Counted from the first letter of the stretch, positions 867 through 46,691 are shown. The stretch: DNA of 47,004 nucleotides from a virus (IMGVR_UViG_3300025324_000003:1-47004), one strand, 5' to 3'. Numbers and translations are program-made. Notes: a model not told the origin generated them from the letters alone.

Positions 867-3800
867 ATGCCATTTTATCCAATCTTTGATAGGAGAACTG
901 GTAAACGCTATCGGATGGCTTGGGATGGACCTGACAAGCCTGACTCTGAGTCTATCAAGAAGTTCATTTACGATGAGGAGAATAGGTCTACTTGGAATAA
1001 GATTAACAAACCTCTAAGTGATCTCCCATCACGAATTGCTAAGCCTATCTCTGAGAGGCTCTATAAGTATGGTGAGGCAGAACCAGGTGGACCTCTTTCT
1101 AGTCGAGGATTAGCACGAGGAGCCGGCGCTCTTACTGAGTCTCTAGGCAATGTCGCATCCTCTTTAACTTCTCCTCTTTCGTTGGGATTATTTGGTCTAA
1201 CCGGAGGAACAGGAGCTGCCGCTCGTCTTGGTTTTGGCAGGACTAGTCAAGCCTTAGTCGGAGCGCAAAGAGCTGCTGGTGCTGGTCTTGCTGGTCATGG
1301 GGCTTACAACGTGGCAACTGGTGAGACTCTTGCAGAAAAATTAGGAGGAGCAGTAGAAGCTCTTGGAGGAGCAGCAGGAGTAGCCTTTCCCTATAAGGGT
1401 CGTCCTGTTGCTCCTAGACCTATCTCTACCCCCAAGCCAATCCCACGCGCTCCGAAACAGATAGGACCAGGAAGAACAATTACTGGACCAGGAGATATAA
1501 ATGCAGAGTTTTCTGTCCTTCCTGACATGGAGTTACCTCCAGGTCCATCTCCAGCTCAGCTTCCAGGATTAAAAGAGCCACTAGCTCTACCTCCTGGTAG
1601 ACCTCCTTACTACGCTGGTAGAAGAGGAGTTAGCCAAAATCTGGAAGATGTTGGTGAGATTATCGGTCATGGAGAAAGGGCTGCTCCACCATATGGAACT
1701 ATTGGTATTATTCCAAATCGTTACGAAAACTTAAGGGGTCCAGGGATAAATATTAGAGGTAAAGGACTAGAAAATTTTGAGCTTCCATCTTCTCCAGTCA
1801 AGCGTAAACTTCCAGTCGAACGTAAGCTTCCAACTCCTAAGGGAGCAGAGGATGTAAGTAAGCGTCCCTTCACTGAGACTCCTATAGCCAAGGCCATAGA
1901 AGAAAAACGAATAATGGACTTTGGCGCTCCTAAAGGTATCTCAGAGCGTCGTCAATCTGAACTCTTGAAGAAATTTGGAGGAACTAAAGCTGAGCTAGAA
2001 ACTAGAGATACAATAATCTCAAGGCTCAATAATTTGCTCAAGGACGAAAAAGGATTTGTCAAACTCCCCTCTAAAGAAAGCAGAAAGTCTATAGCTAAAG
2101 TCTACGATGATCTAGCCACCTCAGGTCTAACCGTTATAAGAAAGCTTGGTGGTAAGGATCTGGAAAGGCTCATCCTAAAAAATAGGTTAGACTCTGAGCA
2201 ACTCGCAGGTCGGATCAACTCAAAGCTCAAGACTATTACTAAAGACCTTACCCAAGAGGAGCTAGCTAACTATATCGATGTCAGAGATATTGGTGCGCGT
2301 CCACTCAATCAGAAAGTAGCTGATGCTTTCTCACAATTTAAGGATGTAGATTCTGATGTCACTAGGATGGCTCAGATGTCGGGGATGGGGCTTAGGAGAG
2401 GGAAGAAAACTGTTCCATTTGAGCCTCTAGGTGAGGAGGGTAGATACTTCGCTCACATTTATGGTCCTGAATTTTTTAAGGATAAGCCTAGGGCTCTCGA
2501 ATCCATTATGAACGAGGGCTATACTCTGGACCAAGCCGAGAGAATCCTCAAAAGGGCCTCAGAGTATGGCGAGCGTCTGATTGACCCCCAGCATGGTAGA
2601 GTTGTAAATGCTCCCGGCTATCGTAAGGACATAAATGTCGACTATCAACATATAGACGACATGTCCAGGAGGATTAAACAAGCCGTTGACTTTGGTCCAA
2701 TGGATACCGCAGATAAAGGAAGTCCAATCTCAAGAATGATAGCTGCGACCGACGACCCAATCAGAGTTGGTAAAATAGTCAAGCGTTATTTGGGCCGTGA
2801 AGAACCGATGGACCCTAATTGGGCTAGGTTTAATGCCGGTGCTGTCAAATTTCAGTCTGCGACTAAACTGTCTAAATTCTTAATCAATAATACTGCTCAG
2901 CTAGGTATGATTCCAGTTAGAGCAGGATTTAAGAATACAGGAAAAGCACTCGGGAGGATACTCTTTGACTATCCAGGAGCAAGAAGTGAGGCCGAGATAA
3001 CAGGCGCGCTCCAACCCATTCATAGGGAGTTAATAAGAGAAGCTGGAGGTCCAAGTGGAATTGCAAAGTGGTTTGGTATCTCTAAAGGGGAAGAATGGAT
3101 TAGATCGACTGCTGCTATAGCTGGTAAGCATTCTGCTAAGGACTTGTTCCAAAAGCTGGTCAAGAATCCAGAAAATGCTCGCATTAGAGCTCAAATAGAA
3201 GACCTCCTCTTAGAGGATGCAAATAAACTTCTTGGTCAAACTAAGCTCACAGACTGGCAGATAAATAGGGCCGGAGCGCGGATGAGTGAGGTTACTCAAG
3301 GACGTGCATCAAGTATTGATCTACCTAAGCTCTGGACCGACTTCCCTGCCGCTCGTCTAGTCATGCTCTATAAGAGATACGCTTTCCAGCAAAGTAAAAA
3401 CATCAAAGAAGCCTTCAGGATAATGGGTCCAGTAAAGACTGCTGCTATTCTTACTGGAACTTCTGCTATTCTTGGCGAGGGGATTGGAGATGTCAACGCG
3501 GTCCTGAGAGGAACTGGTAGAGCTATAGGTGGAGCAGGAGATATCGAGAATGAGATAGCTCAGGCCATTTCAGATAGAGGAGAGGGATATGATAGACTTA
3601 TAAATAATCTTGCTCAGGCATGGGCTCTTGGTTATGTTGGGGACGTCCTTGAAAGCGCAGGTAGGGGTCGAGGAGGAATAGCATCTAATGTTGCTGGACC
3701 TATGATTGGTGATATAGATGAGGCTTCTGCTGCCCTATTCGCTGGTGGAGAGCAGGATGATTTCAAGACGTCAATGGGAAAGAAAACTAGAGCAGTTACA

Positions 3801-3917
3801 GCTATGGGAGCGCGTATGGTTCCTCTCTTTGGGACGGGCCTAGCCTCTGCTATTCGTGAGTCCGATTCGAGTAGAAATAGGCGCCAACGACGAGGTAGAG
3901 CACGAAGAGGAAGGTAA
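867..3917 (+). CDS. Large virion-associated protein (1016 aa), possibly an internal/ejection protein
   Basis: Long ORF abutting the upstream stop (TAA-ATG). It has a Gly/Ala-rich N-terminal region, a Pro-rich linker and a very basic C-terminus (RNRRQRRGRARRGR). It is the last gene of the rightward late arm. Function is inferred from size and position only. Confidence 0.6.
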   Translation: MPFYPIFDRRTGKRYRMAWDGPDKPDSESIKKFIYDEENRSTWNKINKPLSDLPSRIAKPISERLYKYGEAEPGGPLSSRGLARGAGALTESLGNVASSLTSPLSLGLFGLTGGTGAAARLGFGRTSQALVGAQRAAGAGLAGHGAYNVATGETLAEKLGGAVEALGGAAGVAFPYKGRPVAPRPISTPKPIPRAPKQIGPGRTITGPGDINAEFSVLPDMELPPGPSPAQLPGLKEPLALPPGRPPYYAGRRGVSQNLEDVGEIIGHGERAAPPYGTIGIIPNRYENLRGPGINIRGKGLENFELPSSPVKRKLPVERKLPTPKGAEDVSKRPFTETPIAKAIEEKRIMDFGAPKGISERRQSELLKKFGGTKAELETRDTIISRLNNLLKDEKGFVKLPSKESRKSIAKVYDDLATSGLTVIRKLGGKDLERLILKNRLDSEQLAGRINSKLKTITKDLTQEELANYIDVRDIGARPLNQKVADAFSQFKDVDSDVTRMAQMSGMGLRRGKKTVPFEPLGEEGRYFAHIYGPEFFKDKPRALESIMNEGYTLDQAERILKRASEYGERLIDPQHGRVVNAPGYRKDINVDYQHIDDMSRRIKQAVDFGPMDTADKGSPISRMIAATDDPIRVGKIVKRYLGREEPMDPNWARFNAGAVKFQSATKLSKFLINNTAQLGMIPVRAGFKNTGKALGRILFDYPGARSEAEITGALQPIHRELIREAGGPSGIAKWFGISKGEEWIRSTAAIAGKHSAKDLFQKLVKNPENARIRAQIEDLLLEDANKLLGQTKLTDWQINRAGARMSEVTQGRASSIDLPKLWTDFPAARLVMLYKRYAFQQSKNIKEAFRIMGPVKTAAILTGTSAILGEGIGDVNAVLRGTGRAIGGAGDIENEIAQAISDRGEGYDRLINNLAQAWALGYVGDVLESAGRGRGGIASNVAGPMIGDIDEASAALFAGGEQDDFKTSMGKKTRAVTAMGARMVPLFGTGLASAIRESDSSRNRRQRRGRARRGR

Positions 3918-11600: not shown

Positions 11601-11817
11601 TTTTAGATGGTTTCCAGCCCCTAGATACAGCTATTTGTTTCAGTTTGACTATATACCTCTCGACCCAGGCGTCGTGTTCTGGTTCTTCCCCCACGTATGG
11701 GCATCTTTCTATGTCCTTAATGAGTATGTAGTTCATGTAGCTCGTATCTTCTTCTGGTGGTAGTGCTGGCATTCCCCACATCTCTCTAGCAGTATTTCTC
11801 CAATCCCCGTCTTTCAT
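11584..11817 (-). CDS. Hypothetical protein (77 aa)
   Basis: ORF overlapping both neighbours by a few nt, consistent with operon packing. Confidence 0.55.
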   Translation of the reverse strand: MKDGDWRNTAREMWGMPALPPEEDTSYMNYILIKDIERCPYVGEEPEHDAWVERYIVKLKQIAVSRGWKPSKNEQKT

Positions 11818-12779
11818 GTTTCAAGCTCCTCTTCCACCTCATCTCTAGAGTAGGGGTCCCAGGGTTGATCCTTGAAGAAGAATGCCTGAAGTTTATACTC
11901 CCTTATTTCTATTGGAACCTTGCAAACCATCTGGAAGATACAACCAGAGTATTTATCACAAGAAGTTCGATTCTTAGGTAGACTTATAACCTCATTGGAC
12001 TCTAGCTTCCTATGCCACTCGACCGCTTCTTTGACCCTATTTACTGTATCCTTTATCCACTCATCTATTGCAAACTGACCAGAATCATGGACGAGCCTAC
12101 GAAATTTTGACTTGTCTCTACCCTGATCATCAGGCTCATTGTCTTGAGCTTTAACTGTAGTCTGATAACCAATCTTGTCTACTATGACTGGAATTCCGAA
12201 CGCCCACTCGTAGCCCTGAAACTGATTGGAAAGAATGTAGGGATAGGACCGTCTAGACTCTGTCTTCGTATCGACGACTGCTATGCCAATCTTTGGATCT
12301 CTCACACGCGCGTCGATTACACCCTCATAGATGATAATGAGACCATCGTAAATCTTATCGCGTTCTTCACCAACACCCTCAATTGGAGTGCTATCTTCGT
12401 AGAGAATCTTAGAGAATGGCTGTTCTAAATCGAGAATCTCCCAGCCATCATATTGCCAGCGGAGGACATACTCTTTGAATACTCTAATGTCATCTTCAAA
12501 CTCTTCGACTGTGAGATGATAGGTATTTGCCGATGCTACCTTTCCCACGAGAATACACTCATTGACAAGATTACCATGATTCTCTTTGTCAGTATGGCCC
12601 GCTTTCTTACCCTCTCTATATCTCTTGAGCATGGTGTGCATGACTGAGCCACGCTCTAAAGCTAGGGCTTTCCTTAGAGGTCGCCAGTGTCCAATGTGTT
12701 CTAGTCTATATCTCTCCCAACATAAGTCCATAGAGTTTAGAACTTGGGAATCGATTTTGACAGTTAGTTTATCCGACAT
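11814..12779 (-). CDS. PD-(D/E)XK exonuclease, Cas4/RecB-like, with Cys cluster
   Basis: Nuclease core: GVIDARV...VVDTKTE. Also QFQGY, an N-terminal Cys (DLCWERY) and a C-terminal CDKYSGCIFQMVC, typical of Fe-S Cas4-like nucleases. Confidence 0.75.
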   Translation of the reverse strand: MSDKLTVKIDSQVLNSMDLCWERYRLEHIGHWRPLRKALALERGSVMHTMLKRYREGKKAGHTDKENHGNLVNECILVGKVASANTYHLTVEEFEDDIRVFKEYVLRWQYDGWEILDLEQPFSKILYEDSTPIEGVGEERDKIYDGLIIIYEGVIDARVRDPKIGIAVVDTKTESRRSYPYILSNQFQGYEWAFGIPVIVDKIGYQTTVKAQDNEPDDQGRDKSKFRRLVHDSGQFAIDEWIKDTVNRVKEAVEWHRKLESNEVISLPKNRTSCDKYSGCIFQMVCKVPIEIREYKLQAFFFKDQPWDPYSRDEVEEELET

Positions 12780-13071
12780 TTATATTCCTACTTATCCTTT
12801 TGATGAGTTCGTGGATTTTCGTGTTTGTCTGATCTATATACTCATGACTTAAATGCTCATATAGCTCACGCGCTGTATCTATGTCTATCTCGATATACTT
12901 AGCGCGTTCCTTAATCTCTAAATCTCGGCCTTTCTTATAGCCGAAATCATAACACTCAATGTATTTCTTCTTTCGAGCTAAGCCTTTTCTCCTTGACCCA
13001 CTCTTCGAGGATTGTGAGGGTTTCTTCTTGGTTGATCGACGTCGCGGCGAAGACGATAAACGGCTTACCAT
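12769..13071 (-). CDS. Hypothetical protein; start uncertain
   Basis: ORF with a basic, low-complexity N-terminus that overlaps 12956..13204 by 116 nt. There is no internal ATG/GTG/TTG near the upstream stop. Confidence 0.4.
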   Translation of the reverse strand: MVSRLSSSPRRRSTKKKPSQSSKSGSRRKGLARKKKYIECYDFGYKKGRDLEIKERAKYIEIDIDTARELYEHLSHEYIDQTNTKIHELIKRISRNINVG

Positions 13072-39822: not shown

Positions 39823-40031
39823 TGATTATAACAGAATCTGAACTCTATCAAGTCATTGGTGAGCTTTTCGTTGCGCGTGCTAAAACTGACGTCCTTTATA
39901 AGCAAGCTCTTGTCCAGATAGAGGAGATGAGTAGAGTAATTAGTGTATTACGTAGAGAGATTGAGCTTCAAAATCTTGAGAAGAAAGAGCTAGAAGATGG
40001 CAAACTGGTCGGAACAGAGCGTAAAATATAA
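39822..40031 (+). CDS. Hypothetical coiled-coil protein (69 aa)
   Basis: The start overlaps the upstream stop. The 3' end overlaps the HNH start. Confidence 0.45.
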   Translation: MIITESELYQVIGELFVARAKTDVLYKQALVQIEEMSRVISVLRREIELQNLEKKELEDGKLVGTERKI

Positions 40032-40419
40032 GAGAGTTGATCCTCTTACTGGCTGCTGGCTTTGGATTGGCAACCATGATAGGTATGGATATCCTATTTT
40101 TGGATCTGGTAATGATAGGGTCCATGTTAGTAGACTCATACTTGGACTAACTAATAGCTCTATTTTTGCTTGTCATAAAAATAGCTGTCCTACAGGGAAT
40201 CGATGCTGGAATCCAGACCATTTATATTCTGGAACTGCTAAGGAAAATAGTCATGATATGATAGTTAAAGGAAATCATGTGAGTGGTTACGGAGCTGCTA
40301 AAGCTAATAAAACTCACTGTCCTCAAGGTCATGAGTATACACAAGAAAACATGGTAGACCAAAGATACGGTAGAAGGTGTAAGACCTGCTATCCCAAGGG
40401 ACACAAGTTAGTTAGATAG
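39997..40419 (+). CDS. HNH homing endonuclease (paralogue of 29724..30083)
   Basis: GCWLWIGNHDRYGYP...HVSRLILG...ACHKNSCPTGNRCWNPDHLYSGTAKENSHD, plus a C-terminal CPQGH...CKTC zinc ribbon. Confidence 0.8.
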   Translation: MANWSEQSVKYKRVDPLTGCWLWIGNHDRYGYPIFGSGNDRVHVSRLILGLTNSSIFACHKNSCPTGNRCWNPDHLYSGTAKENSHDMIVKGNHVSGYGAAKANKTHCPQGHEYTQENMVDQRYGRRCKTCYPKGHKLVR

Positions 40420-40432
40420 GAAGGGTAGCCAT
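39997..40432 (+). mobile_element. Putative 436-bp HNH insertion flanked by a 14-nt direct repeat (ATGGCAAACTGGTC / ATCGCAAACTGGTC)
   Basis: The repeat copies at 39997-40010 and 40433-40446 differ by 1 nt. Each sits at the start of an ORF, in frame. Confidence 0.45.
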
Positions 40433-40897
40433 ATCGCAAACTGGTCTAATCCTACAATAACGACTAATTACGACGTCTTCGTATCTGAGGCTAAAGATAG
40501 AGACGTTGACTCTGCGACTATGTTCTTGAGTGCTCCTACAAACCAACCGACCGGAGCTATCAGATACAATAGAAGCGATGATACGTTTGAAGAGTGGAGT
40601 GGAACTGCTTGGGTAGTCATTCCGATTGCAGTCGCTGGATATGGGACTGGCGCGGCTACGGCTGCTGGTGCTCGGACTAATCTTGGTATAGGGACGATGG
40701 GAGTTCAGAACTCTAATGCTATAGCTGTCACTGGTGGGACTATTACTGGCTTGACTCAGCTTGACATGAGTGCGTCTATAACTTTTGCGACTGACGCAAC
40801 CTACGACCTAGCTACATTCGCTAAGCAGGTGAGGAAAGGTTATTTCAAGGACGCTCTTGTTCTTCCTGTTGGCGTCGATAAATTTGCTACGTCTTAA
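40433..40897 (+). CDS. Tail fibre protein (N-terminal anchor type), apparently lacking a canonical start codon
   Basis: The first ATG is at 40520, but the frame is open from 40412. It encodes IANWSNPTITTNYDVFVSEAKDRDVDSAT upstream, continuing with PTGAIRYNRSDDTFEEWSGTAW and ARTNLGIG...VTGGTITG, the conserved fibre N-terminal pattern. AGGAAGGG lies 7 nt before the ATC at 40433. Confidence 0.6.
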   Translation: MANWSNPTITTNYDVFVSEAKDRDVDSATMFLSAPTNQPTGAIRYNRSDDTFEEWSGTAWVVIPIAVAGYGTGAATAAGARTNLGIGTMGVQNSNAIAVTGGTITGLTQLDMSASITFATDATYDLATFAKQVRKGYFKDALVLPVGVDKFATS

Positions 40898-40907
40898 GAG
40901 ATAGGAT

Positions 40908-41687
40908 ATGGCGAAGCTAGCAGGATCGTCTTGGATAGAAGGAAATTACTTTCATTATATCGACAACTCTAACCGTGAGTGGAGATTTGAAGGAACTTTA
41001 GTCAATGCGGCTGGAGCAGGAGCTAAGGCTGGATCAGCATGGGTAGAAGGAGTTGACTTACACTACGTCAATGAAGCAGCAACCAACGAATATAAGGTCT
41101 ACGGACCAGATCAGGGAGCTAAAGCTGGGGCAAAATCTGGATCTGCTTGGATAGAGAATACTCTAGCTGCTTGGATTAAAGAAGGAGCGACTAATAAATA
41201 TACAGGTCATGATGATGTTGCTCATACAGATTCTCATGGTGACGTAGCCCACGTAGATTCAGCTCATGGTGACATCGCGCATTCTGACGTAGCTCACGGA
41301 GATCATAGCGACCATAATGATGAAGGGCATACTGACACTCATAGCGATTCACATTCCGATAGTGCTCACAGTGATACTCACACTGACACTCATAGCGATA
41401 CTGGTCATGCCGATCTTCACTTCGACTTTTACGATGCCTTTGATCCACATGAAGATACTCATAATGATATCCCTCATACTGACTCTCATACTGATTCCCA
41501 CTCTGATGTAGCTCATGGAGATACAGCTCATGGAGACGCTCATACTAATGAGGCTCACGAGGACGCTACCCCTCATACTGATTCCCACTCTGACATCGCT
41601 CATACGGATGCTGCTCACGCTGATACTCATACTGATAGCCATTCTGATACAGCTCACATTGATAAACCAGAACTCATCGGTGCCTAG
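40908..41687 (+). CDS. His-Xaa-Asp repeat protein (259 aa), candidate radical-SAM substrate or distal fibre component
   Basis: The N-terminal region has three ~30-aa repeats (GS[SA]W[IV]E[GN]...). The C-terminal ~160 aa hold about 30 HxD triplets (AHTDSHGDVAHVDSAHGDIAHSD...THTDSHSDTAHID). Confidence 0.75.
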   Translation: MAKLAGSSWIEGNYFHYIDNSNREWRFEGTLVNAAGAGAKAGSAWVEGVDLHYVNEAATNEYKVYGPDQGAKAGAKSGSAWIENTLAAWIKEGATNKYTGHDDVAHTDSHGDVAHVDSAHGDIAHSDVAHGDHSDHNDEGHTDTHSDSHSDSAHSDTHTDTHSDTGHADLHFDFYDAFDPHEDTHNDIPHTDSHTDSHSDVAHGDTAHGDAHTNEAHEDATPHTDSHSDIAHTDAAHADTHTDSHSDTAHIDKPELIGA

Positions 41688-41688
41688 A

Positions 41689-42120
41689 ATGGACGACGAG
41701 AGACTCCTTAGCATTCTCGGTTTGCTCTATGGAGATGATAGGCCAGCTCTTGAGAATATTCGTGTCGTGTCTAGTCAGGATTATCCAGGCTCTAAGAGTG
41801 ATACTACCCAACCTAAAGCTTGGGCTAGATCAAATGATCCTAATATCTATTTAGATAGAGGACACGACATCTATAAGCTTGCAATGTCTGGAAACAAAAA
41901 TGCACAAAAAGCCTTAGCCGGGATCTTAGGCCACGAGCAATTTCACAAAAGGGTGACTATGGACGAAGGTCCGGCCTACGAAAAAGAGCTGGAAATCCTA
42001 AAATCTTTGCGCGCGAGTGGTTCTGAGCTTTCTCGCGTTAGAATGGCACAAAGACACGTAGATCCAAACTATCGAGTTCTCAAGTCTAAACCTTTCAATT
42101 CAATGGGATATCTCAGGTGA
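41689..42120 (+). CDS. Small HExxH-motif protein (143 aa), putative metallopeptidase
   Basis: The ATG at 41689 lies 1 nt after the upstream stop. Contains ILGHEQFHKR. The N-terminal part of ORF 41515.. is a repeat artefact. Confidence 0.55.
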   Translation: MDDERLLSILGLLYGDDRPALENIRVVSSQDYPGSKSDTTQPKAWARSNDPNIYLDRGHDIYKLAMSGNKNAQKALAGILGHEQFHKRVTMDEGPAYEKELEILKSLRASGSELSRVRMAQRHVDPNYRVLKSKPFNSMGYLR

Positions 42121-43283
42121 GCATAGAATATCTGCCATCCGGCGTCAAATGTAATCTCAAATGCTCCTATTGTTATCAGGAGCCTATGAGAGAGGCTGGG
42201 AATTTCTCTTCTCATGTTGACTTTGTGCGTGTGAAGGAAACCCTTTCTAAACAAGGAGATAGTTTCACCGTCTTCGGAGGAGAACCTCTACTTACTCCTC
42301 TGTATAGACTTGAGGAGATATTTCAATTTGGCTTTGATAAGTATGGGAAGAATGGAATCCAAACGAACGGACTCCTTATAACTGATAAGCATATTGATAT
42401 CTTTAGGAAATATAATGTCCACGTCGGTTTGTCTCTTGATGGTAAGGGTAAGTTAAACTCTCCTCGTTGTTGCACAGATGATACGGATAAAATCGTAAGA
42501 AACATCGAGAATCTCTTCTCCAATCATATAGACTGGTCTATAATTACGACGATTCACAGGTTAAATGGAAGTCAGATTGACGATCTAATCGATTTTCTTA
42601 AGTCTATGGAGTCTCTCGGGGCGCTCTCAGTCAATCTCCATAATCTAGAAATCGACTTTAGGGCGGATGGGATTACTTTGACTAAAGAAGAAAACTTAGA
42701 GATTTTCTTTCGGCTATATCAACACTCAAAAGAGTCTAATATCCCATATCATCCCTTTACCGACATTAGGGATAAGCTGACTGGTAGAGATGCACATTGC
42801 GTATGGAATAATTGTGATCCAATAACTACTCCAGCCGTCCAGGGGATCTCTGCAGATGGGTATCTGTCTAATTGCGGTCGAGTAAATAAGGATGGCGTTA
42901 ATTGGTTGAAACCAGAAGGACATGGAAGTGAGAGGTATCTAGCTCTTTGGAATATTCCTCTAGAATATGGGGGATGTAAAGATTGCAACTATTTCTTCGT
43001 CTGTGGAGGCCAATGTCCTGGGACAGCCATTGACGGAGATTGGCGTAATAAAACTAGGGATTGCTGGTTTTGGTATGAGCTTATTCGCTTGATAGAGAGA
43101 GATTTGAGTTTGATTAGTAACTATAGCGATAAAAATTTAGCTCTTGTTGAACGTATGTCTAATCCTAGCACTAATGACTCTCACGGCGACGTCCCACATG
43201 GCGATGGTCATGGTGACGAGCATGGAGATCATACTGATCGAACATATAAATCTCAAGGAGTATCGGTGGTATGGAGAGACTAG
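42117..43283 (+). CDS. Radical SAM enzyme with SPASM domain and a C-terminal HGD-repeat tail
   Basis: Contains CNLKCSYC (Cx3Cx2C), FGGEPLL, IQTNG and VGLSLDG. The SPASM signature is CKDCNYFFVCGGQC (Cx2Cx5Cx3C). The tail reads DSHGDVPHGDGHGDEHGDHTD. The GTG start overlaps the upstream stop. Confidence 0.85.
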   Translation: MSIEYLPSGVKCNLKCSYCYQEPMREAGNFSSHVDFVRVKETLSKQGDSFTVFGGEPLLTPLYRLEEIFQFGFDKYGKNGIQTNGLLITDKHIDIFRKYNVHVGLSLDGKGKLNSPRCCTDDTDKIVRNIENLFSNHIDWSIITTIHRLNGSQIDDLIDFLKSMESLGALSVNLHNLEIDFRADGITLTKEENLEIFFRLYQHSKESNIPYHPFTDIRDKLTGRDAHCVWNNCDPITTPAVQGISADGYLSNCGRVNKDGVNWLKPEGHGSERYLALWNIPLEYGGCKDCNYFFVCGGQCPGTAIDGDWRNKTRDCWFWYELIRLIERDLSLISNYSDKNLALVERMSNPSTNDSHGDVPHGDGHGDEHGDHTDRTYKSQGVSVVWRD

Positions 43284-44614
43284 GCTTTGTCCTTAATGAA
43301 TTTGTTCGTTTCATTTGGGTATCTAAGAAAGCCGAGCAAGTCTGGAGTCCTGTCATCTCAAATCTGTCTAATTTTTTCTTTAAGATCGAGAGAGAATCAG
43401 TAAGAGCTGGGATTAAGCCTGTGATTATTCAGAATGTTCCTCCTGACGATGATTTTGTTAACCAGTCGCAGAGATGGCTCATGGAAGAGGGGAAAGTAAT
43501 GCTTCCTCTAGAAAGAGTCAATACTAGCCCTGGCTATAGGTCTAATTCTGGATACTTTGATTCAACAAAGCCATTCAATTTCGTTGTCGTGATAGGGAAT
43601 CGACAAGATGCTATTTCTCTTGCCAAAGCCCATGGAAAAAATAACTGGCAAACTGTAGGTAGACTTCTTGGCTACCCTGAATGCTGTATAAGGTTCTTCC
43701 AAAAGTATTGGGTCGAGGAAAAATGGATCGACACAACACTTCCGATGGCCCAAGACTGGAGAGGTGGGTATGTCCATCCAACTAACAACATTTTACTCCG
43801 ATGGGCAGGAATCAGACTTGTAAGTCATCTTCCGTGTAGCCTTACATGCCAAAAAACTAGAGAACTTGGAGATTCAAATGTTACTCTAGCTCATGACATT
43901 GGATGCGATAGTGAGATAAGTCAAATTATCGAAATTCTTAGTTGGCCGATAGAGTGGTCTTCGCTTCATGGGATTGCGATTATTACGACTCCAGTCTTCA
44001 GGATCATTACTAGCTCAGACGCGCTCCTAGAGAAGAAAATAATCCGATTACAGGGAGATAAATACCCAAGAGAAGCAGCATCTGGAAAGGTCTTTCCCTT
44101 TAGGAGCACTAAGATGTGGACTGATAATGGATTTTCAAGTCTAAAAGCGATGGAGGAGGCTCATAATAAGATCATCGATTTTATCAAACCGCTATTTCCA
44201 AAATCAATCATCGACTTCGGATGTGGAAACATGAGATTAGTCAATATCTGTGCGCGTCTGTTTGGGGCTCGTGTGGTAGGCGTGGACTCGGATTCGACTA
44301 AAGATCCTACAATTCTTTCAGATATTTTTGATGTGAGGGTTGGAGAGTCTTTCGACCTTGCTCTTATCTCTGTCAACCGTGTTAACGAGCAGCCAGAGAA
44401 GGCGAAAGCATGGTTGGAAGAGCTTAGAGTAAACGTTAAATATCTTCTGGTCTATACTTACGATGATGGACCATTCAAGTTCTCTATTCCCGAGTCTTGG
44501 ACCGACGGAGTAGAGATAGTTCGTTCAGTGGATAGTATGGTTCTTTTGAGGTTGCAGCATGACTTTAAGACAGACGCAATCCCTCTTTGCGAGACTAATT
44601 CCTCGGTTAATTGA
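43271..44614 (+). CDS. Cys-rich N-terminal domain fused to a class I SAM-dependent methyltransferase
   Basis: N-domain: LLGYPECCIRFF and SHLPCSLTC. C-domain motif I: IIDFGCGNMRLV, then VVGVDSD and FDLALIS. It overlaps the rSAM stop by 13 nt. Confidence 0.65.
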   Translation: MERLGFVLNEFVRFIWVSKKAEQVWSPVISNLSNFFFKIERESVRAGIKPVIIQNVPPDDDFVNQSQRWLMEEGKVMLPLERVNTSPGYRSNSGYFDSTKPFNFVVVIGNRQDAISLAKAHGKNNWQTVGRLLGYPECCIRFFQKYWVEEKWIDTTLPMAQDWRGGYVHPTNNILLRWAGIRLVSHLPCSLTCQKTRELGDSNVTLAHDIGCDSEISQIIEILSWPIEWSSLHGIAIITTPVFRIITSSDALLEKKIIRLQGDKYPREAASGKVFPFRSTKMWTDNGFSSLKAMEEAHNKIIDFIKPLFPKSIIDFGCGNMRLVNICARLFGARVVGVDSDSTKDPTILSDIFDVRVGESFDLALISVNRVNEQPEKAKAWLEELRVNVKYLLVYTYDDGPFKFSIPESWTDGVEIVRSVDSMVLLRLQHDFKTDAIPLCETNSSVN

Positions 44615-44897
44615 CAAAGCCCATGAGTTAGGCTTTGAGGTTACTTTAGGAGAGGCATGGAGGTCTGAGTGGGAGGCAACTCGTCTTGCTAGAGTAGGAC
44701 TTGGCATAAAAATGTCGCTTCATCGAGACAAGCTAGCTATCGACCTTAACCTCTTTAAGGATGGCATATACCTTTCTTCTACTAAATCTCATCTACAATT
44801 AGGAGAATGGTGGGAGAGCCAACATAATCTTTGTCGGTGGGGTGGTCGTTTTAAGGATGGCAATCATTATTCTATATCATATGAAGGGAGGAAATAA
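44559..44897 (+). CDS. Peptidase M15 (VanY/L-alanyl-D-glutamate peptidase-like) endolysin
   Basis: SLHRDKLAIDL (HxxxxxxD) and DGNHY zinc-ligand motifs. 112 aa. A GAGG Shine-Dalgarno is present. Confidence 0.7.
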   Translation: MTLRQTQSLFARLIPRLIDKAHELGFEVTLGEAWRSEWEATRLARVGLGIKMSLHRDKLAIDLNLFKDGIYLSSTKSHLQLGEWWESQHNLCRWGGRFKDGNHYSISYEGRK

Positions 44898-45195: not shown

Positions 45196-45585
45196 ATGGT
45201 TAAGCTTCGTTCTCTAGCTTCTTCTGACATCTTAAGACTAGACGAACTTTGGCAGGAACACTGGTCTGATACCTCCTTACCTGGACTTAGGAGTCGAATC
45301 GTCGACGCGCTCGCAGTTGATGAGGACGATAAAATAATTGGGTATGGGCAGGTCAAACTTTTCGCCGAGGCTATGCTCTTTCTCGATCCGACTACTCGTA
45401 AGAAGGATAGGGTGCAGGCTTTACGTCTACTCATGCTCGAGGCATTTAGAGGGACCGAGAAGGCAAATATTGAGGACATCTATACCTTCATCAAAGATCC
45501 TGACTTTGCTCTTATCATCGAAAAGCACTTCGGGTTCGAGCGCGTCTTAGAGCCTAGAGAGCTTTTGCTAAGGAGGGTCAAATGA
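45196..45585 (+). CDS. GNAT-like acetyltransferase (tentative)
   Basis: The ATG at 45196 (MVKLRSLASSDI...) is followed by a VDEDDKIIGYGQV...RVQALRLLMLEAF...HFGFERV pattern resembling the GNAT fold order. Confidence 0.45.
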   Translation: MVKLRSLASSDILRLDELWQEHWSDTSLPGLRSRIVDALAVDEDDKIIGYGQVKLFAEAMLFLDPTTRKKDRVQALRLLMLEAFRGTEKANIEDIYTFIKDPDFALIIEKHFGFERVLEPRELLLRRVK

Positions 45586-46691
45586 GTGGTGGGAAGGAAA
45601 AGAAAGCTACCAATCGTATGATTGGTGAGCAATATCAGCAGGAAAAGGCTGCTTATGGAAAAGCTGCTGGTAGAGCTGAGACTGATTTAACTAAGTATGG
45701 TGGCAGGGGTGATGTAGGCTTTCAGGATCTAGAGCGTCGTTATCAATCTTTAGCTGACACTTCTACTCCGACTCCTAGTTCTCGGGGAGGAGCAGGTGGT
45801 GGTGGTGGAGGATTTGCTGGGACTCCATCTTCCTATGAGGCATTTCAGAAGGGTCTAACTGCTCCAGGTGGAGGTTGGGATCCTGGAAGATTGGCATCCA
45901 TTCAAGGCGATATTCGAGATGTCAGGTCGATGTCTAGCGACCCTGAAATAGCTCGTCGGATGAGAGGTGCTGGAGTCTTCGACGAGTTTGCCCAAACTGG
46001 TGGGTATTCTGAGGCTGATAAGTCTAACATTAGAGCACGAGGCACGTCTGGTGTCTCTGCTATGTTTGGAAGGATGAAGGACGAAGCTAACAGAATAGCA
46101 TCTATTCAGGGAGGCTATGGTCCTGGCAGCTCTGCTCTGATGTCTAGATTTGGTAGAGAACAAGCTGGAGCTGCCTCTGATGCCGCTCTCAATGCTGAGC
46201 TTGGTATATCAGAAGGTGTGAGAACTGGTAGAATGGGGGCCGCTCAAGCACTATCTGGAGCAGAGGAGGCATATCAGGGGGGAAGACTACAATCCCTTCA
46301 AGGTGCTTCTGGAATGGAGAGTGGGCTTGAATCTGACATCTACGGTCGTAATGTAGCAGGTCAGAATGCCCTAGAGGAAGCTAGGAGGCGCCGTTCCGCT
46401 CAAGCTTCGGCTCGATCTGCTCAGGCTCAAGCTGCAAATAGATGGGAGAGGCAGTTTGCTCGTCAGGGGCAGATGGCTGGACTAGAGGGTTTATCTTCTC
46501 TCTATGGAGCTAGTGAAAGTGGCTATGGCAGAGGACTAGACTATGAGGGTCGGAATAGAGGTATAGGAGCGGGTGTCCAGCAGGGTAATCTTGGACTAAG
46601 AATCGAGAATAATCCGCAAAGAAGCTGGATTGATGTCCTTGGCGCTGCGGGTGGAGTAGCTGGGGCATTCCGGCCGTCTTCTGGGAGATAG
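45582..46691 (+). CDS. Gly/Ala/Ser/Arg-rich virion protein (369 aa), possibly an internal protein
   Basis: ATGA overlap with the upstream gene. Contains a GGAGGGGGGF tract. It is followed by two more large ORFs of similar character. Confidence 0.6.
   Translation: MSGGKEKKATNRMIGEQYQQEKAAYGKAAGRAETDLTKYGGRGDVGFQDLERRYQSLADTSTPTPSSRGGAGGGGGGFAGTPSSYEAFQKGLTAPGGGWDPGRLASIQGDIRDVRSMSSDPEIARRMRGAGVFDEFAQTGGYSEADKSNIRARGTSGVSAMFGRMKDEANRIASIQGGYGPGSSALMSRFGREQAGAASDAALNAELGISEGVRTGRMGAAQALSGAEEAYQGGRLQSLQGASGMESGLESDIYGRNVAGQNALEEARRRRSAQASARSAQAQAANRWERQFARQGQMAGLEGLSSLYGASESGYGRGLDYEGRNRGIGAGVQQGNLGLRIENNPQRSWIDVLGAAGGVAGAFRPSSGR

Follow-up and report, generated by a model that had tools for sequence, protein, structure and literature searches.

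Phage His-Xaa-Asp repeat proteins linked to a radical SAM/SPASM enzyme and a DUF483 protein in a tail-fibre setting

Introduction

Why would a tailed phage carry, between its tail-fibre and lysis genes, a radical S-adenosylmethionine (SAM) enzyme beside a protein built from some thirty His-Xaa-Asp (HxD) triplets, and is the one made for the other? The locus that raises this question occupies positions 40908-44614 of the viral DNA IMGVR_UViG_3300025324_000003:1-47004 (the window, meaning the whole stretch of 47,004 nucleotides that was analysed), a tailed-phage genome that encodes a DNA polymerase, a primase, a helicase, a large terminase and a major head protein. A model reading this DNA alone (the original prediction) had seen two possible answers: a pathway for a ribosomally synthesised and post-translationally modified peptide (RiPP), with a repeat substrate, a radical SAM/SPASM maturase, a peptidase and a tailoring enzyme, or a fibre module that the radical SAM enzyme cross-links.

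Following the four genes through phage and cellular genomes, we found that HxD proteins, this enzyme and a protein with a DUF483-type domain are encoded together, in phages next to or within tail-fibre genes. The reading that we favour, with some but not strong confidence, is that the cassette is a tail-fibre maturation system in which the enzyme, together with the DUF483 protein, would covalently modify the HxD triplets, by analogy with characterised enzymes. The closest analogy is with the triceptide synthases (XyeB/XncB, GrrM/OscB, YhhB, HaaB, HtkB, ChlB, FxsB), which, like the window, combine a radical SAM/SPASM enzyme with aromatic-x-X3 triplets.

Conservation of a three-gene cassette

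The cassette consists of four plus-strand open reading frames (ORFs), and all motifs quoted for them in the original prediction were present in the translations. A 1-nt gap separates the gene of the HxD repeat protein (40908-41687, 259 aa) from that of an HExxH protein (41689-42120, 143 aa), and the HExxH gene overlaps by 4 nt the gene of the radical SAM/SPASM enzyme (42117-43283, 388 aa, GTG start), which in turn overlaps by 13 nt the gene of a DUF483 and methyltransferase protein (43271-44614, 447 aa). These ORFs and junctions are exactly those first described, and so is the site between tail-fibre and lysis genes: tail and fibre genes, with tail-fibre matches in PHROG, lie 5' of the cassette, and an M15-like endolysin (44559-44897, plus strand; weak Pfam Peptidase_M15_4 match, PHROG endolysin match), which forms its downstream boundary, and a transmembrane ORF lie 3' of it. 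No match came from a Megablast search of 50,697 phage records with the cassette, and homologues were reached at the protein level only.

A search of 5.8 billion proteins returned more than 120 homologues of the enzyme, with 42-62% identity and all unnamed, and a scan of viral contigs with the enzyme alignment gave 50 distinct family loci, 47 of them with enough upstream sequence. An ORF with at least ten HxD triplets was found within 4.5 kb in 45 of these 47 phage loci, mostly ending exactly at the start of the enzyme gene, and a DUF483 gene in 46, mostly directly downstream of the enzyme; by comparison, none of 23 loci holding only distant radical SAM genes had an HxD array. The reverse search used a DNA pattern for four HxDxx units, and its low-complexity matches (HDDMDHDD, HQDMR, wrong-frame repeats) were discarded on reading the sequences. 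It yielded 20 loci with true arrays and sufficient flank, and the enzyme was encoded in every one of them. The neighbourhood comparison that the original prediction had called for thus upholds its pairing of repeat protein and enzyme as a functional unit, the co-occurrence being near-perfect from either starting point, among phages as well as in cellular genomes. Judged by these neighbourhoods, the conserved unit is one of three genes, for the HxD array protein, the radical SAM/SPASM enzyme and the DUF483 protein. The proposed four-gene unit of substrate, maturase, peptidase and tailoring enzyme fell away, with the HExxH gene in only three cassettes and the methyltransferase optional.

In tblastn searches of phage records, both the enzyme (44% identity) and the repeat protein had homologues in the Thermus phages phiMa and Cumys. 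Three of the four window genes have true homologues in the modules of these phages, with the order unchanged (HxD protein, enzyme, DUF483) and with the same fibre-to-lysis position, after baseplate and tail-collar genes and before lysis genes; unlike the window, these modules are without the methyltransferase domain and without the HExxH gene. Since two cultivable Thermus phages carry the cassette, the system is directly testable.

Some loci are arranged differently (related loci are named by an L number where needed). Two tandem enzyme paralogues stand in L007/L047 (4491-7941), L053 (4973-8362) and L052 (7001-9913); one enzyme copy in these loci is much longer (647-673 aa) and itself HxD-rich, and two HxD proteins flank the cassette in L007/L047 and L053. 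In the 178-kb Thermus phage phiLo (L002), the HxD protein is a minus-strand ORF of 405 aa with 72 HxD (11807-13024), about 4 kb from the enzyme gene and on the opposite strand, and fragments of an IS605-type transposase fill the usual substrate slot 5' of the enzyme gene. The only true array found without the enzyme was that of L164 (934-2016; also L199 and L117), a protein of 360-365 aa with a GPPGPPGPAG collagen-like stretch, 12-13 HxD and then poly-Gly, followed by two glycosyltransferase genes.

The repeat protein and its place in the fibre

The last 160 residues of the 259-aa protein contain 33 His, 32 of which have Asp at +2, with a spacing of mostly 4-5 residues. The original prediction had estimated about 30 such triplets; 100,000 composition-preserving shuffles gave 7.2 ± 2.1 (maximum 17). 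Tandem Repeats Finder detected only two weak period-12 arrays in the DNA, with about three copies and 76-78% match, so that the repeat is maintained at the protein level, as had been argued from its degeneracy. With 35 Asp among these 160 residues and hardly any Lys or Arg, the array is strongly acidic, and across the family the repeat regions are rich in His and Asp and nearly without Cys, Lys and Arg. In 53 phage HxD proteins the residue at +2 from His was Asp in 88.5% and Asn in 8%, and the residue two before Asp was His in 82.7%, with Tyr, Phe and Trp among the next substitutes. This pattern suggests that the motif behaves as aromatic-x-X3, the triceptide pattern; a putative substrate with repeated triplets of that kind, 32 HxD in the window, is encoded next to the enzyme.

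The protein has two parts. Residues 1-100 (40908..41207, plus strand) form an N-terminal domain of three repeats of about 36 aa with the pattern GSxW(I/V)EGxxLHY(I/V)D, which was detected in 41 related loci. Residues 101-259 (41208..41684, plus strand) are the HxD array and proposed substrate, in which 18 triplets lead to an aromatic turn (LHFDFYDAFDPHED, about 41418-41459) and another 14 lead on from it to a cap. In the alignment of homologues the C-terminal cap HxDxPxxIG(P) is conserved and the array centre is hypervariable and aromatic-rich. An AlphaFold2 model of the monomer, made with 42 homologues in the alignment, gave the N-domain a predicted local distance difference test (pLDDT) score of 91-98 and arranged its 12 beta-strands as three sets of four. 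One further strand was called at residues 255-258, in a final block with mean pLDDT 89. Since all other strands of the model are in the N-domain, we infer for the HxD region a closed loop, about 150 residues long and anchored at both ends, with the C-terminus docked on the N-domain. An out-and-back rod whose apex varies would be expected to show just such a conserved cap and variable middle. Foldseek gave no significant PDB fold match for the HxD protein, to gp37 or to any other fibre, and Pfam and NCBIfam recognised no domain of any kind in it, hence no peptidoglycan-binding domain.

The whole three-gene cassette, including the three-repeat N-domain, was also found in archaea, in L231 (687-4089, a Nanohaloarchaea metagenome-assembled genome) and in L232 (6722-10285, Halorubellus litoreus), and therefore spans bacterial and archaeal (pro)viruses.

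Directly 5' of the HxD gene lies that of a proximal fibre protein of 154 aa (40433..40897, plus strand) with tail-fibre matches in PHROG. Its start is probably the non-canonical codon ATC 40433, and the ATG ORF 40520-40897 a truncated reading: a strong Shine-Dalgarno sequence, AGGAAGGG, stands at 40418-40425, 5' of the ATC, from which the protein reads IANWSNPTITTNY; the protein is 68% identical over its full length, starting from the ATC codon, to its homologue in L285; and homologues of 153-160 aa align from the same position. Such fibre homologues (153-233 aa) directly precede the HxD gene in 17 related loci, with four further cases besides. HxD blocks also occur inside larger fibre proteins of 700-1,200 aa overall: one such protein is a central tail fibre resembling gpJ (PHROG E = 6e-57; Pfam Phage-tail_3), and others are Laminin_G_3 proteins with lengths of about 1,050-1,180 aa. 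In one family the block directly follows a collagen-like stretch. Since HxD arrays sit within gpJ-like and Laminin-G fibre proteins, the putative phage substrate would, as far as gene context can tell, be part of a virion fibre rather than a peptide that is released. A fusion of the upstream fibre protein with the HxD protein in some phages was considered and dropped, as BLAST showed only the 10-residue VLPVGxDKF to be common to the two.

The HExxH gene and a released peptide

The HExxH gene does carry the motif first reported, GHEQFH, and its product belongs to a family of 74 representatives in which H82, E83, H86 and Y97 (+11) are invariant and E93 (+7) is nearly so. As to the peptidase role assigned to it, there were weak zincin hints, in that three of 32 members touch M48 and two of 32 touch M35, with E around 2e-4; the protein had no PDB match, and TIGR04267 (aKG-HExxH, cut-off 40 bits) matched neither the window protein nor its homologue in L050. 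Within a cassette the gene occurs only in the window, in its closest relative L285 and in L050. Judged from its motif and distribution, the protein is an occasional zincin-like accessory outside the conserved core.

These observations bear on the classical RiPP reading, in which the N-terminal part would be a leader, the HExxH protein would excise HxD peptides, and the product would be diffusible, for example a metallophore, a toxin or a signal that lysis sets free. The HExxH gene sits between the substrate and enzyme genes, the methyltransferase is nearest to plantazolicin N-methyltransferases, and cellular HxD peptides of 63-110 aa beside enzyme-DUF483 fusions look like true precursors (see below). 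Yet the N-terminal 100 residues are a folded three-repeat domain kept in 41 loci rather than a leader, the C-terminus, in the model, returns to that domain and docks there, no protease gene is conserved, and the HxD blocks embedded in gpJ-like and Laminin-G fibre proteins, like the fibre-to-lysis position kept from the window phage to the Thermus phages, do not suit a released product. We therefore regard a released RiPP as improbable for the phage version, and the first reading of the original prediction gives way to its second, a fibre module modified by the enzyme, which the folded N-domain and the gpJ-like and Laminin-G embedding fit far better. For the small cellular peptides the RiPP reading may hold.

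The radical SAM/SPASM enzyme

The enzyme matches Pfam Radical_SAM PF04055 with 65.4 bits (cut-off 29.5, E = 9e-18). Its cluster motif C12x3C16x2C19 is invariant in 30 homologues, FGGEPLL is present, and there is no N-terminal recognition domain. The SPASM signature C287x2C290x5C296x3C300 was found as well, and eight Cys beyond the cluster motif, the four of this signature included (C228, C233, C253, C287, C290, C296, C300, C316), are invariant; all eight align with both auxiliary-cluster sites of the anaerobic sulfatase-maturating enzyme (anSME) and would bind two auxiliary [4Fe-4S] clusters. This Cys pattern places the enzyme in the SPASM subgroup, though the Pfam SPASM model gave no match, and together with the PF04055 score it bears out the radical SAM/SPASM identity, with Cx3Cx2C, GGEPLL and Cx2Cx5Cx3C, that had been predicted.

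Compared with the PDB, the family profile aligned near end-to-end with anSME 4K36 (E = 9e-23), followed by ChlB 9GM3 and SkfB. The top NCBIfam matches were AmcB, anSME, DynA, CbpB, YhhB and GrrM/OscB, all far under their cut-offs (AmcB 80.4 bits against 425, DynA 74 against 450, YhhB 53.8 against 445, GrrM 53.7 against 310), and no cut-off was reached among the named triceptide and cyclophane families AmcB, YhhB, GrrM/OscB, XyeB, FxsB and DynA. Since the best NCBIfam matches all lie far below cut-off, profile comparison assigns the enzyme to a SPASM family without a curated model, of the kind that modifies proteins or peptides.

The solved structures most like it are those of anSME (4K36-4K39; TIGR03942), which also has its CX3CX2C at the very N-terminus and no recognition domain, and which acts on a full-size protein through Cβ hydrogen abstraction. 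A housekeeping sulfatase maturase, which the original prediction had named among the outcomes that would refute it, was rejected: TIGR03942 scored 76.6 bits against a cut-off of 349.45, and none of the cassette proteins and neighbours searched resembled a sulfatase, an HxD array being present instead in 45 of 47 loci. Unlike anSME, the window enzyme has neither a sulfatase gene nor a C/S-x-P/A-x-R target motif nearby, and its constant neighbours are HxD arrays and DUF483.

A feature that the original prediction omitted is the enzyme's own C-terminal tail, which resembles the substrate. Residues 356-374 (43182..43238, plus strand) read HGDVPHGDGHGDEHGDHTD, with the family pattern HGDxPHGDxHGDHTD; H361, D363, H365 and D367 are invariant in 30 sequences, and at least two HxD follow the SPASM motif in 109 of 110 full-length homologues. 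Cellular members that adjoin proteins with HxK or YxK tails, not HxD arrays, are without this HGD tail. It may be a substrate mimic, a docking element, a regulator of the active site or a self-substrate.

The original prediction had also named the His-Xaa-Ser (HXS; HxsA-D, TIGR03976-03979) system as a near precedent. There, radical SAM enzymes and a small partner protein mature a protein of repeated His-x-small-residue triplets, and the modification maps to an HxS-containing motif. As an analogy for a repeat protein matured by radical SAM enzymes the precedent stands; as a family assignment it does not, no Hxs model being among the 25 best NCBIfam matches. HXS is a bacterial defence with two radical SAM enzymes (HxsB, HxsC) and HxsD, and its HxsA, with five basic repeats, is exported to the periplasm; the window has 32 acidic HxD, one enzyme, DUF483 and a fibre context. 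Could the cassette nevertheless be a phage-borne counterpart, its repeat protein acting in the periplasm to block DNA entry of competing phages (superinfection exclusion)? Radical SAM enzymes mature HxsA, whose five HxS repeats block phage DNA entry (PMC13128918), and some phage loci carry two radical SAM paralogues, like Hxs. HxsA, though, is basic, DNA-binding and N-terminally processed and has a peptidoglycan-binding domain, and the window protein is acidic without such a domain in Pfam or NCBIfam; PADLOC matched no system and returned generic viperin-like similarity only; and the genomic context is one of structural fibre genes. We give this explanation hardly any credence.

DUF483 partner and fused methyltransferase

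For the fourth protein, described at first as a Cys-rich domain fused to a class I SAM methyltransferase, both domains were found; the Cys-rich part had been under-rated, the DUF483 part being the third core gene. The DUF483-type domain (residues 1-285; 43271..44125, plus strand) has the motifs LLGYPxCC and SHLPCSxxC. Its match to Pfam DUF483 (PF04467), over residues 128-196, is marginal (26.0-27.2 bits, cut-off 25), and nine of 18 homologues match too. The invariant residues are E40, C138, C139, D154, R182, H186, C189, C193 and H233; in the Thermus phages C189 becomes His, a swap that one expects of a metal site. Structure prediction for the whole fourth protein gave a pLDDT of 91. The DUF483-only profile had its best PDB match in zf-CHCC, a non-significant one (E = 0.055), and a BFVD search gave a single significant match, a 342-aa viral protein whose length suggests that it is the homologue of the Thermus phages. 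A papain- or transglutaminase-like Cys-His-Asp arrangement (CC at a helix start, H233 and D250 on strands) was considered and is not claimed. Since it constantly adjoins the enzyme, and is fused with it in six cellular genomes, the DUF483 protein is, on this genomic evidence, an obligate partner of the enzyme.

From about residue 286 the protein continues as a class I SAM-dependent methyltransferase domain with a DFGCGN motif (44126..44614, plus strand). Its nearest PDB profiles were the plantazolicin methyltransferases BpumL and BamL (E = 3e-10) and Hen1, and Foldseek aligned it with HEN1, AzeJ and BpumL, only this C-terminal half of the fourth protein matching structures. The fusion with DUF483 was detected in 36 related loci and is missing in the Thermus phage versions; by this distribution the methyltransferase is an optional tailoring fusion, not part of the core.

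The Thermus module has been named before: Kolesnik et al. 2024 (Viruses 16:1410; PMC11437467) called it an 'rSAM module' and suggested an unknown DNA modification, without noting the HxD repeats, the HGD tail or the link to fibres. The claim that no HxD version had been described is thus half right, in that the repeats and the fibre link had gone unnoticed in print and the module itself had not. A literature search for a radical-SAM-modified tail fibre returned nothing beyond that paper, and no curated Pfam or NCBIfam model covers the proteins of the three-gene module beyond the marginal PF04467 and the superfamily PF04055 matches.

If the enzyme and DUF483, perhaps with the methyltransferase, modified phage DNA, the HxD protein would be an unrelated neighbour. 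Cyanobacterial homologues beside deazapurine DNA-modification genes, reported in the same paper, and the methyltransferase domain fused in many members are in keeping with such a role. Several observations speak against it: the enzyme has as its closest relatives only SPASM enzymes that act on proteins or peptides, the link to HxD arrays is specific in both directions, the enzyme has the HGD tail, the cassette lies in the tail-fibre and not in the replication module, the cyanobacterial locus L205 has an upstream protein that ends DHVDFHVDF, and the Thermus phages are without the methyltransferase domain. DNA modification is accordingly, in our view, very improbable.

Cellular relatives

One scan of species genomes gave a cellular set of 30 family loci in about ten phyla including archaea, with members in Cyanobacteria, Firmicutes, Acidobacteria, Chloroflexi, Planctomycetes, Bacteroidota, Myxococcota, Alphaproteobacteria and Actinobacteria, one haloarchaeon and one nanohaloarchaeon. 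DUF483 was adjacent or fused to the enzyme in all 30 (fused in six), and the neighbours were of several types: HxD peptides of 63-110 aa, HxK or YxK tails, and HENVS (HxN) repeats. The cyanobacterial protein of L205 mentioned above is one of these neighbours, and a Nannocystis neighbour protein ends PHVDILPHIDHVDLPHIDDY.

Two loci carry large proteins directly before the family enzyme and DUF483. In Fulvivirga marina (L224, 4841-10867) the neighbour has 1,044 aa, an HxK repeat, PHIKHIKAPHIK, and the ending PHLKHIKAPHIKHIKAPHIKHVKLPHVKVF; its 832-aa homologue in a member of the Spirosomataceae (L218, 5506-10071) has the YxK repeat PYIKSPYIKS and ends PYIKSPYIKSPYIKSPYIKW. Between repeat protein and enzyme/DUF483, the Fulvivirga locus also encodes a 266-aa aKG-HExxH peptide beta-hydroxylase (TIGR04267, 57.7 bits, cut-off 40). 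A characterised aKG-HExxH enzyme hydroxylates His and Asp on a pre-formed cyclophane (PMC12636437), and ChlB is likewise partnered with an aKG-HExxH hydroxylase. The HxK, YxK and HxN tails and this hydroxylase point to triceptide-like aromatic-x-x chemistry, and they strengthen the precedent of cyclophane-forming enzymes that the original prediction had invoked.

At the other end of the size range, three loci of the Bryobacterales (Acidobacteriota; L210, 7486-9977; L216, 7761-10037; L217, 7719-10061) encode peptides of 63-87 aa that consist almost entirely of HxD units, for example MPHVDTIIPHTDTKPHSDTPHADTPHSD, directly before single enzyme-DUF483 fusion proteins. These loci look like a RiPP-type version of the system, with peptides resembling true precursors.

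A proposed route to a cross-linked fibre

How might the parts work together in the phage? In the maturation system that we favour, the 259-aa protein would be the distal part of the fibre, whose HxD loop extends from the N-terminal beta domain to the aromatic turn and returns. Before or during fibre assembly, the anSME-like enzyme and the DUF483 protein would modify each of the triplets: a hydrogen would be abstracted from the Asp Cβ, and a bond formed to the imidazole of the His two residues upstream. Such a His-to-Asp-Cβ crosslink is probably the modification, by analogy with triceptide synthases, which bond His-C2 with the third residue's Cβ on HAA, HNR and HTK; His-C2-to-Cβ crosslinks on these motifs are established (PMC11499958). 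The product would be a chain of about 30 three-residue rings, each lowering the mass by 2 Da, and thus a stiff, protease- and heat-resistant rod that could still chelate metal ions. The methyltransferase would add an optional methylation, and the HExxH protein would help occasionally.

The likeness to triceptides extends to the His, a known position-1 residue there as in HxD, and to their families being among the best NCBIfam and PDB matches of the enzyme. The differences are as plain. Triceptides have 1-5 motifs and the window family repeats HxD 20-90 times; the scores are at most 80 bits, against cut-offs of 310-450; and instead of a leader-core peptide the window has a folded fibre protein as its putative substrate, DUF483 as partner and an enzyme with an HGD tail, so that the chemistry is assigned by analogy.

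Several points weigh against this proposal. The enzyme is as close to anSME as to the cyclophane families. The HxD region has low confidence in the AlphaFold2 model (pLDDT 45-65), which is of a monomer only, and the DUF483 domain gave no PDB fold or sequence match in Foldseek or with its domain profile. The evidence for a fusion of fibre and HxD protein came down to one shared 10-residue motif, and a family of collagen-HxD proteins, with 12-13 units, exists without a radical SAM gene within about 10 kb. Once a Cβ hydrogen has been abstracted, dehydro-Asp, epimerisation or hydroxylation would be equally allowed, and His and Asp every 4-5 residues would also fit a metal-coordinating trimeric fibre.

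The last point leads to a different picture, in which the array is a metal-binding (Fe, Zn, Ni or Mn) shaft of a trimeric fibre without covalent change, and the radical SAM enzyme and DUF483 serve elsewhere, for example in assembly or in delivering a metal or cluster. According to PMC11705849, which cites Bartual 2010, the tip of T4 gp37 holds seven iron ions by HxH, and HxH recurs in phage fibres; its HxH chain runs to the tip and back, with His coordinating a column of metal ions. The out-and-back topology predicted for the window protein, with its variable tip, resembles this gp37 needle, the repeats, rich in His and Asp, are almost without Cys, Lys and Arg, and the collagen-HxD protein shows that an array can stand without a nearby radical SAM gene. 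The two fibres differ in that gp37 has HxH at 7 sites and needs chaperones but no radical SAM enzyme, and the window has HxD at 32 sites, Asp standing at +2 for 32 of the 33 array His. Neither in sequence nor in fold was any similarity between the two found. A metal shaft would leave unexplained why enzyme and DUF483 accompany the array in 45 of 47 loci and why they are fused in cells, and Tyr, Phe or Trp can take the place of His at position 1. We rank covalent modification over pure metal binding mainly because relatives of the enzyme adjoin HxK and YxK tails, which are poor metal sites, and we consider a metal shaft alone unlikely. Metal binding and covalent modification are compatible, and the former may be more a complement to fibre maturation than a full rival to it.

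Relative to the known radical SAM/SPASM maturation of repeated triplets, four things are new: the enzyme family, the partner domain, the motif and the class of substrate. A broader generalisation we offer only tentatively, namely that tailed phages of bacteria and archaea convert a distal fibre into dozens of His-Asp cross-linked rings by means of the enzyme and DUF483, and that cellular cousins in about ten phyla decorate large proteins and small peptides. If true, RiPP-type radical chemistry would here be met for the first time on a structural protein of the virion, and a new and very large class of 'poly-triceptide' proteins would be defined. Were the fibre modified, the reach of radical SAM peptide chemistry would widen from small secreted natural products to the structural proteins of virus particles, and the result would be a new fibre material, a covalently stapled and possibly metal-binding rod, as long as its repeat number dictates. 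DUF483, an orphan domain also present in archaea, would gain its first functional context, and a large family of enzymes and substrates without a curated model would be opened up, with more than 100 phage-type enzymes at 42-62% identity and with cellular versions having HxD, HxK, YxK and HxN tails. Phage engineering, too, could gain unusually stable receptor-binding modules.

Other features of the window

Among the tail genes 5' of the cassette, a 140-aa Cys/His-rich ORF (39997-40419) has the appearance of a homing endonuclease and only a weak Pfam match, to AWS; it stops 13 nt 5' of the probable ATC start of the fibre gene. Two large ORFs were without a family match, one of 1,016 aa at the left end of the window (867-3917) and one of 369 aa (45582-46691), which is rich in Gly, Ala, Ser and Arg and lies directly 3' of the lysis genes.

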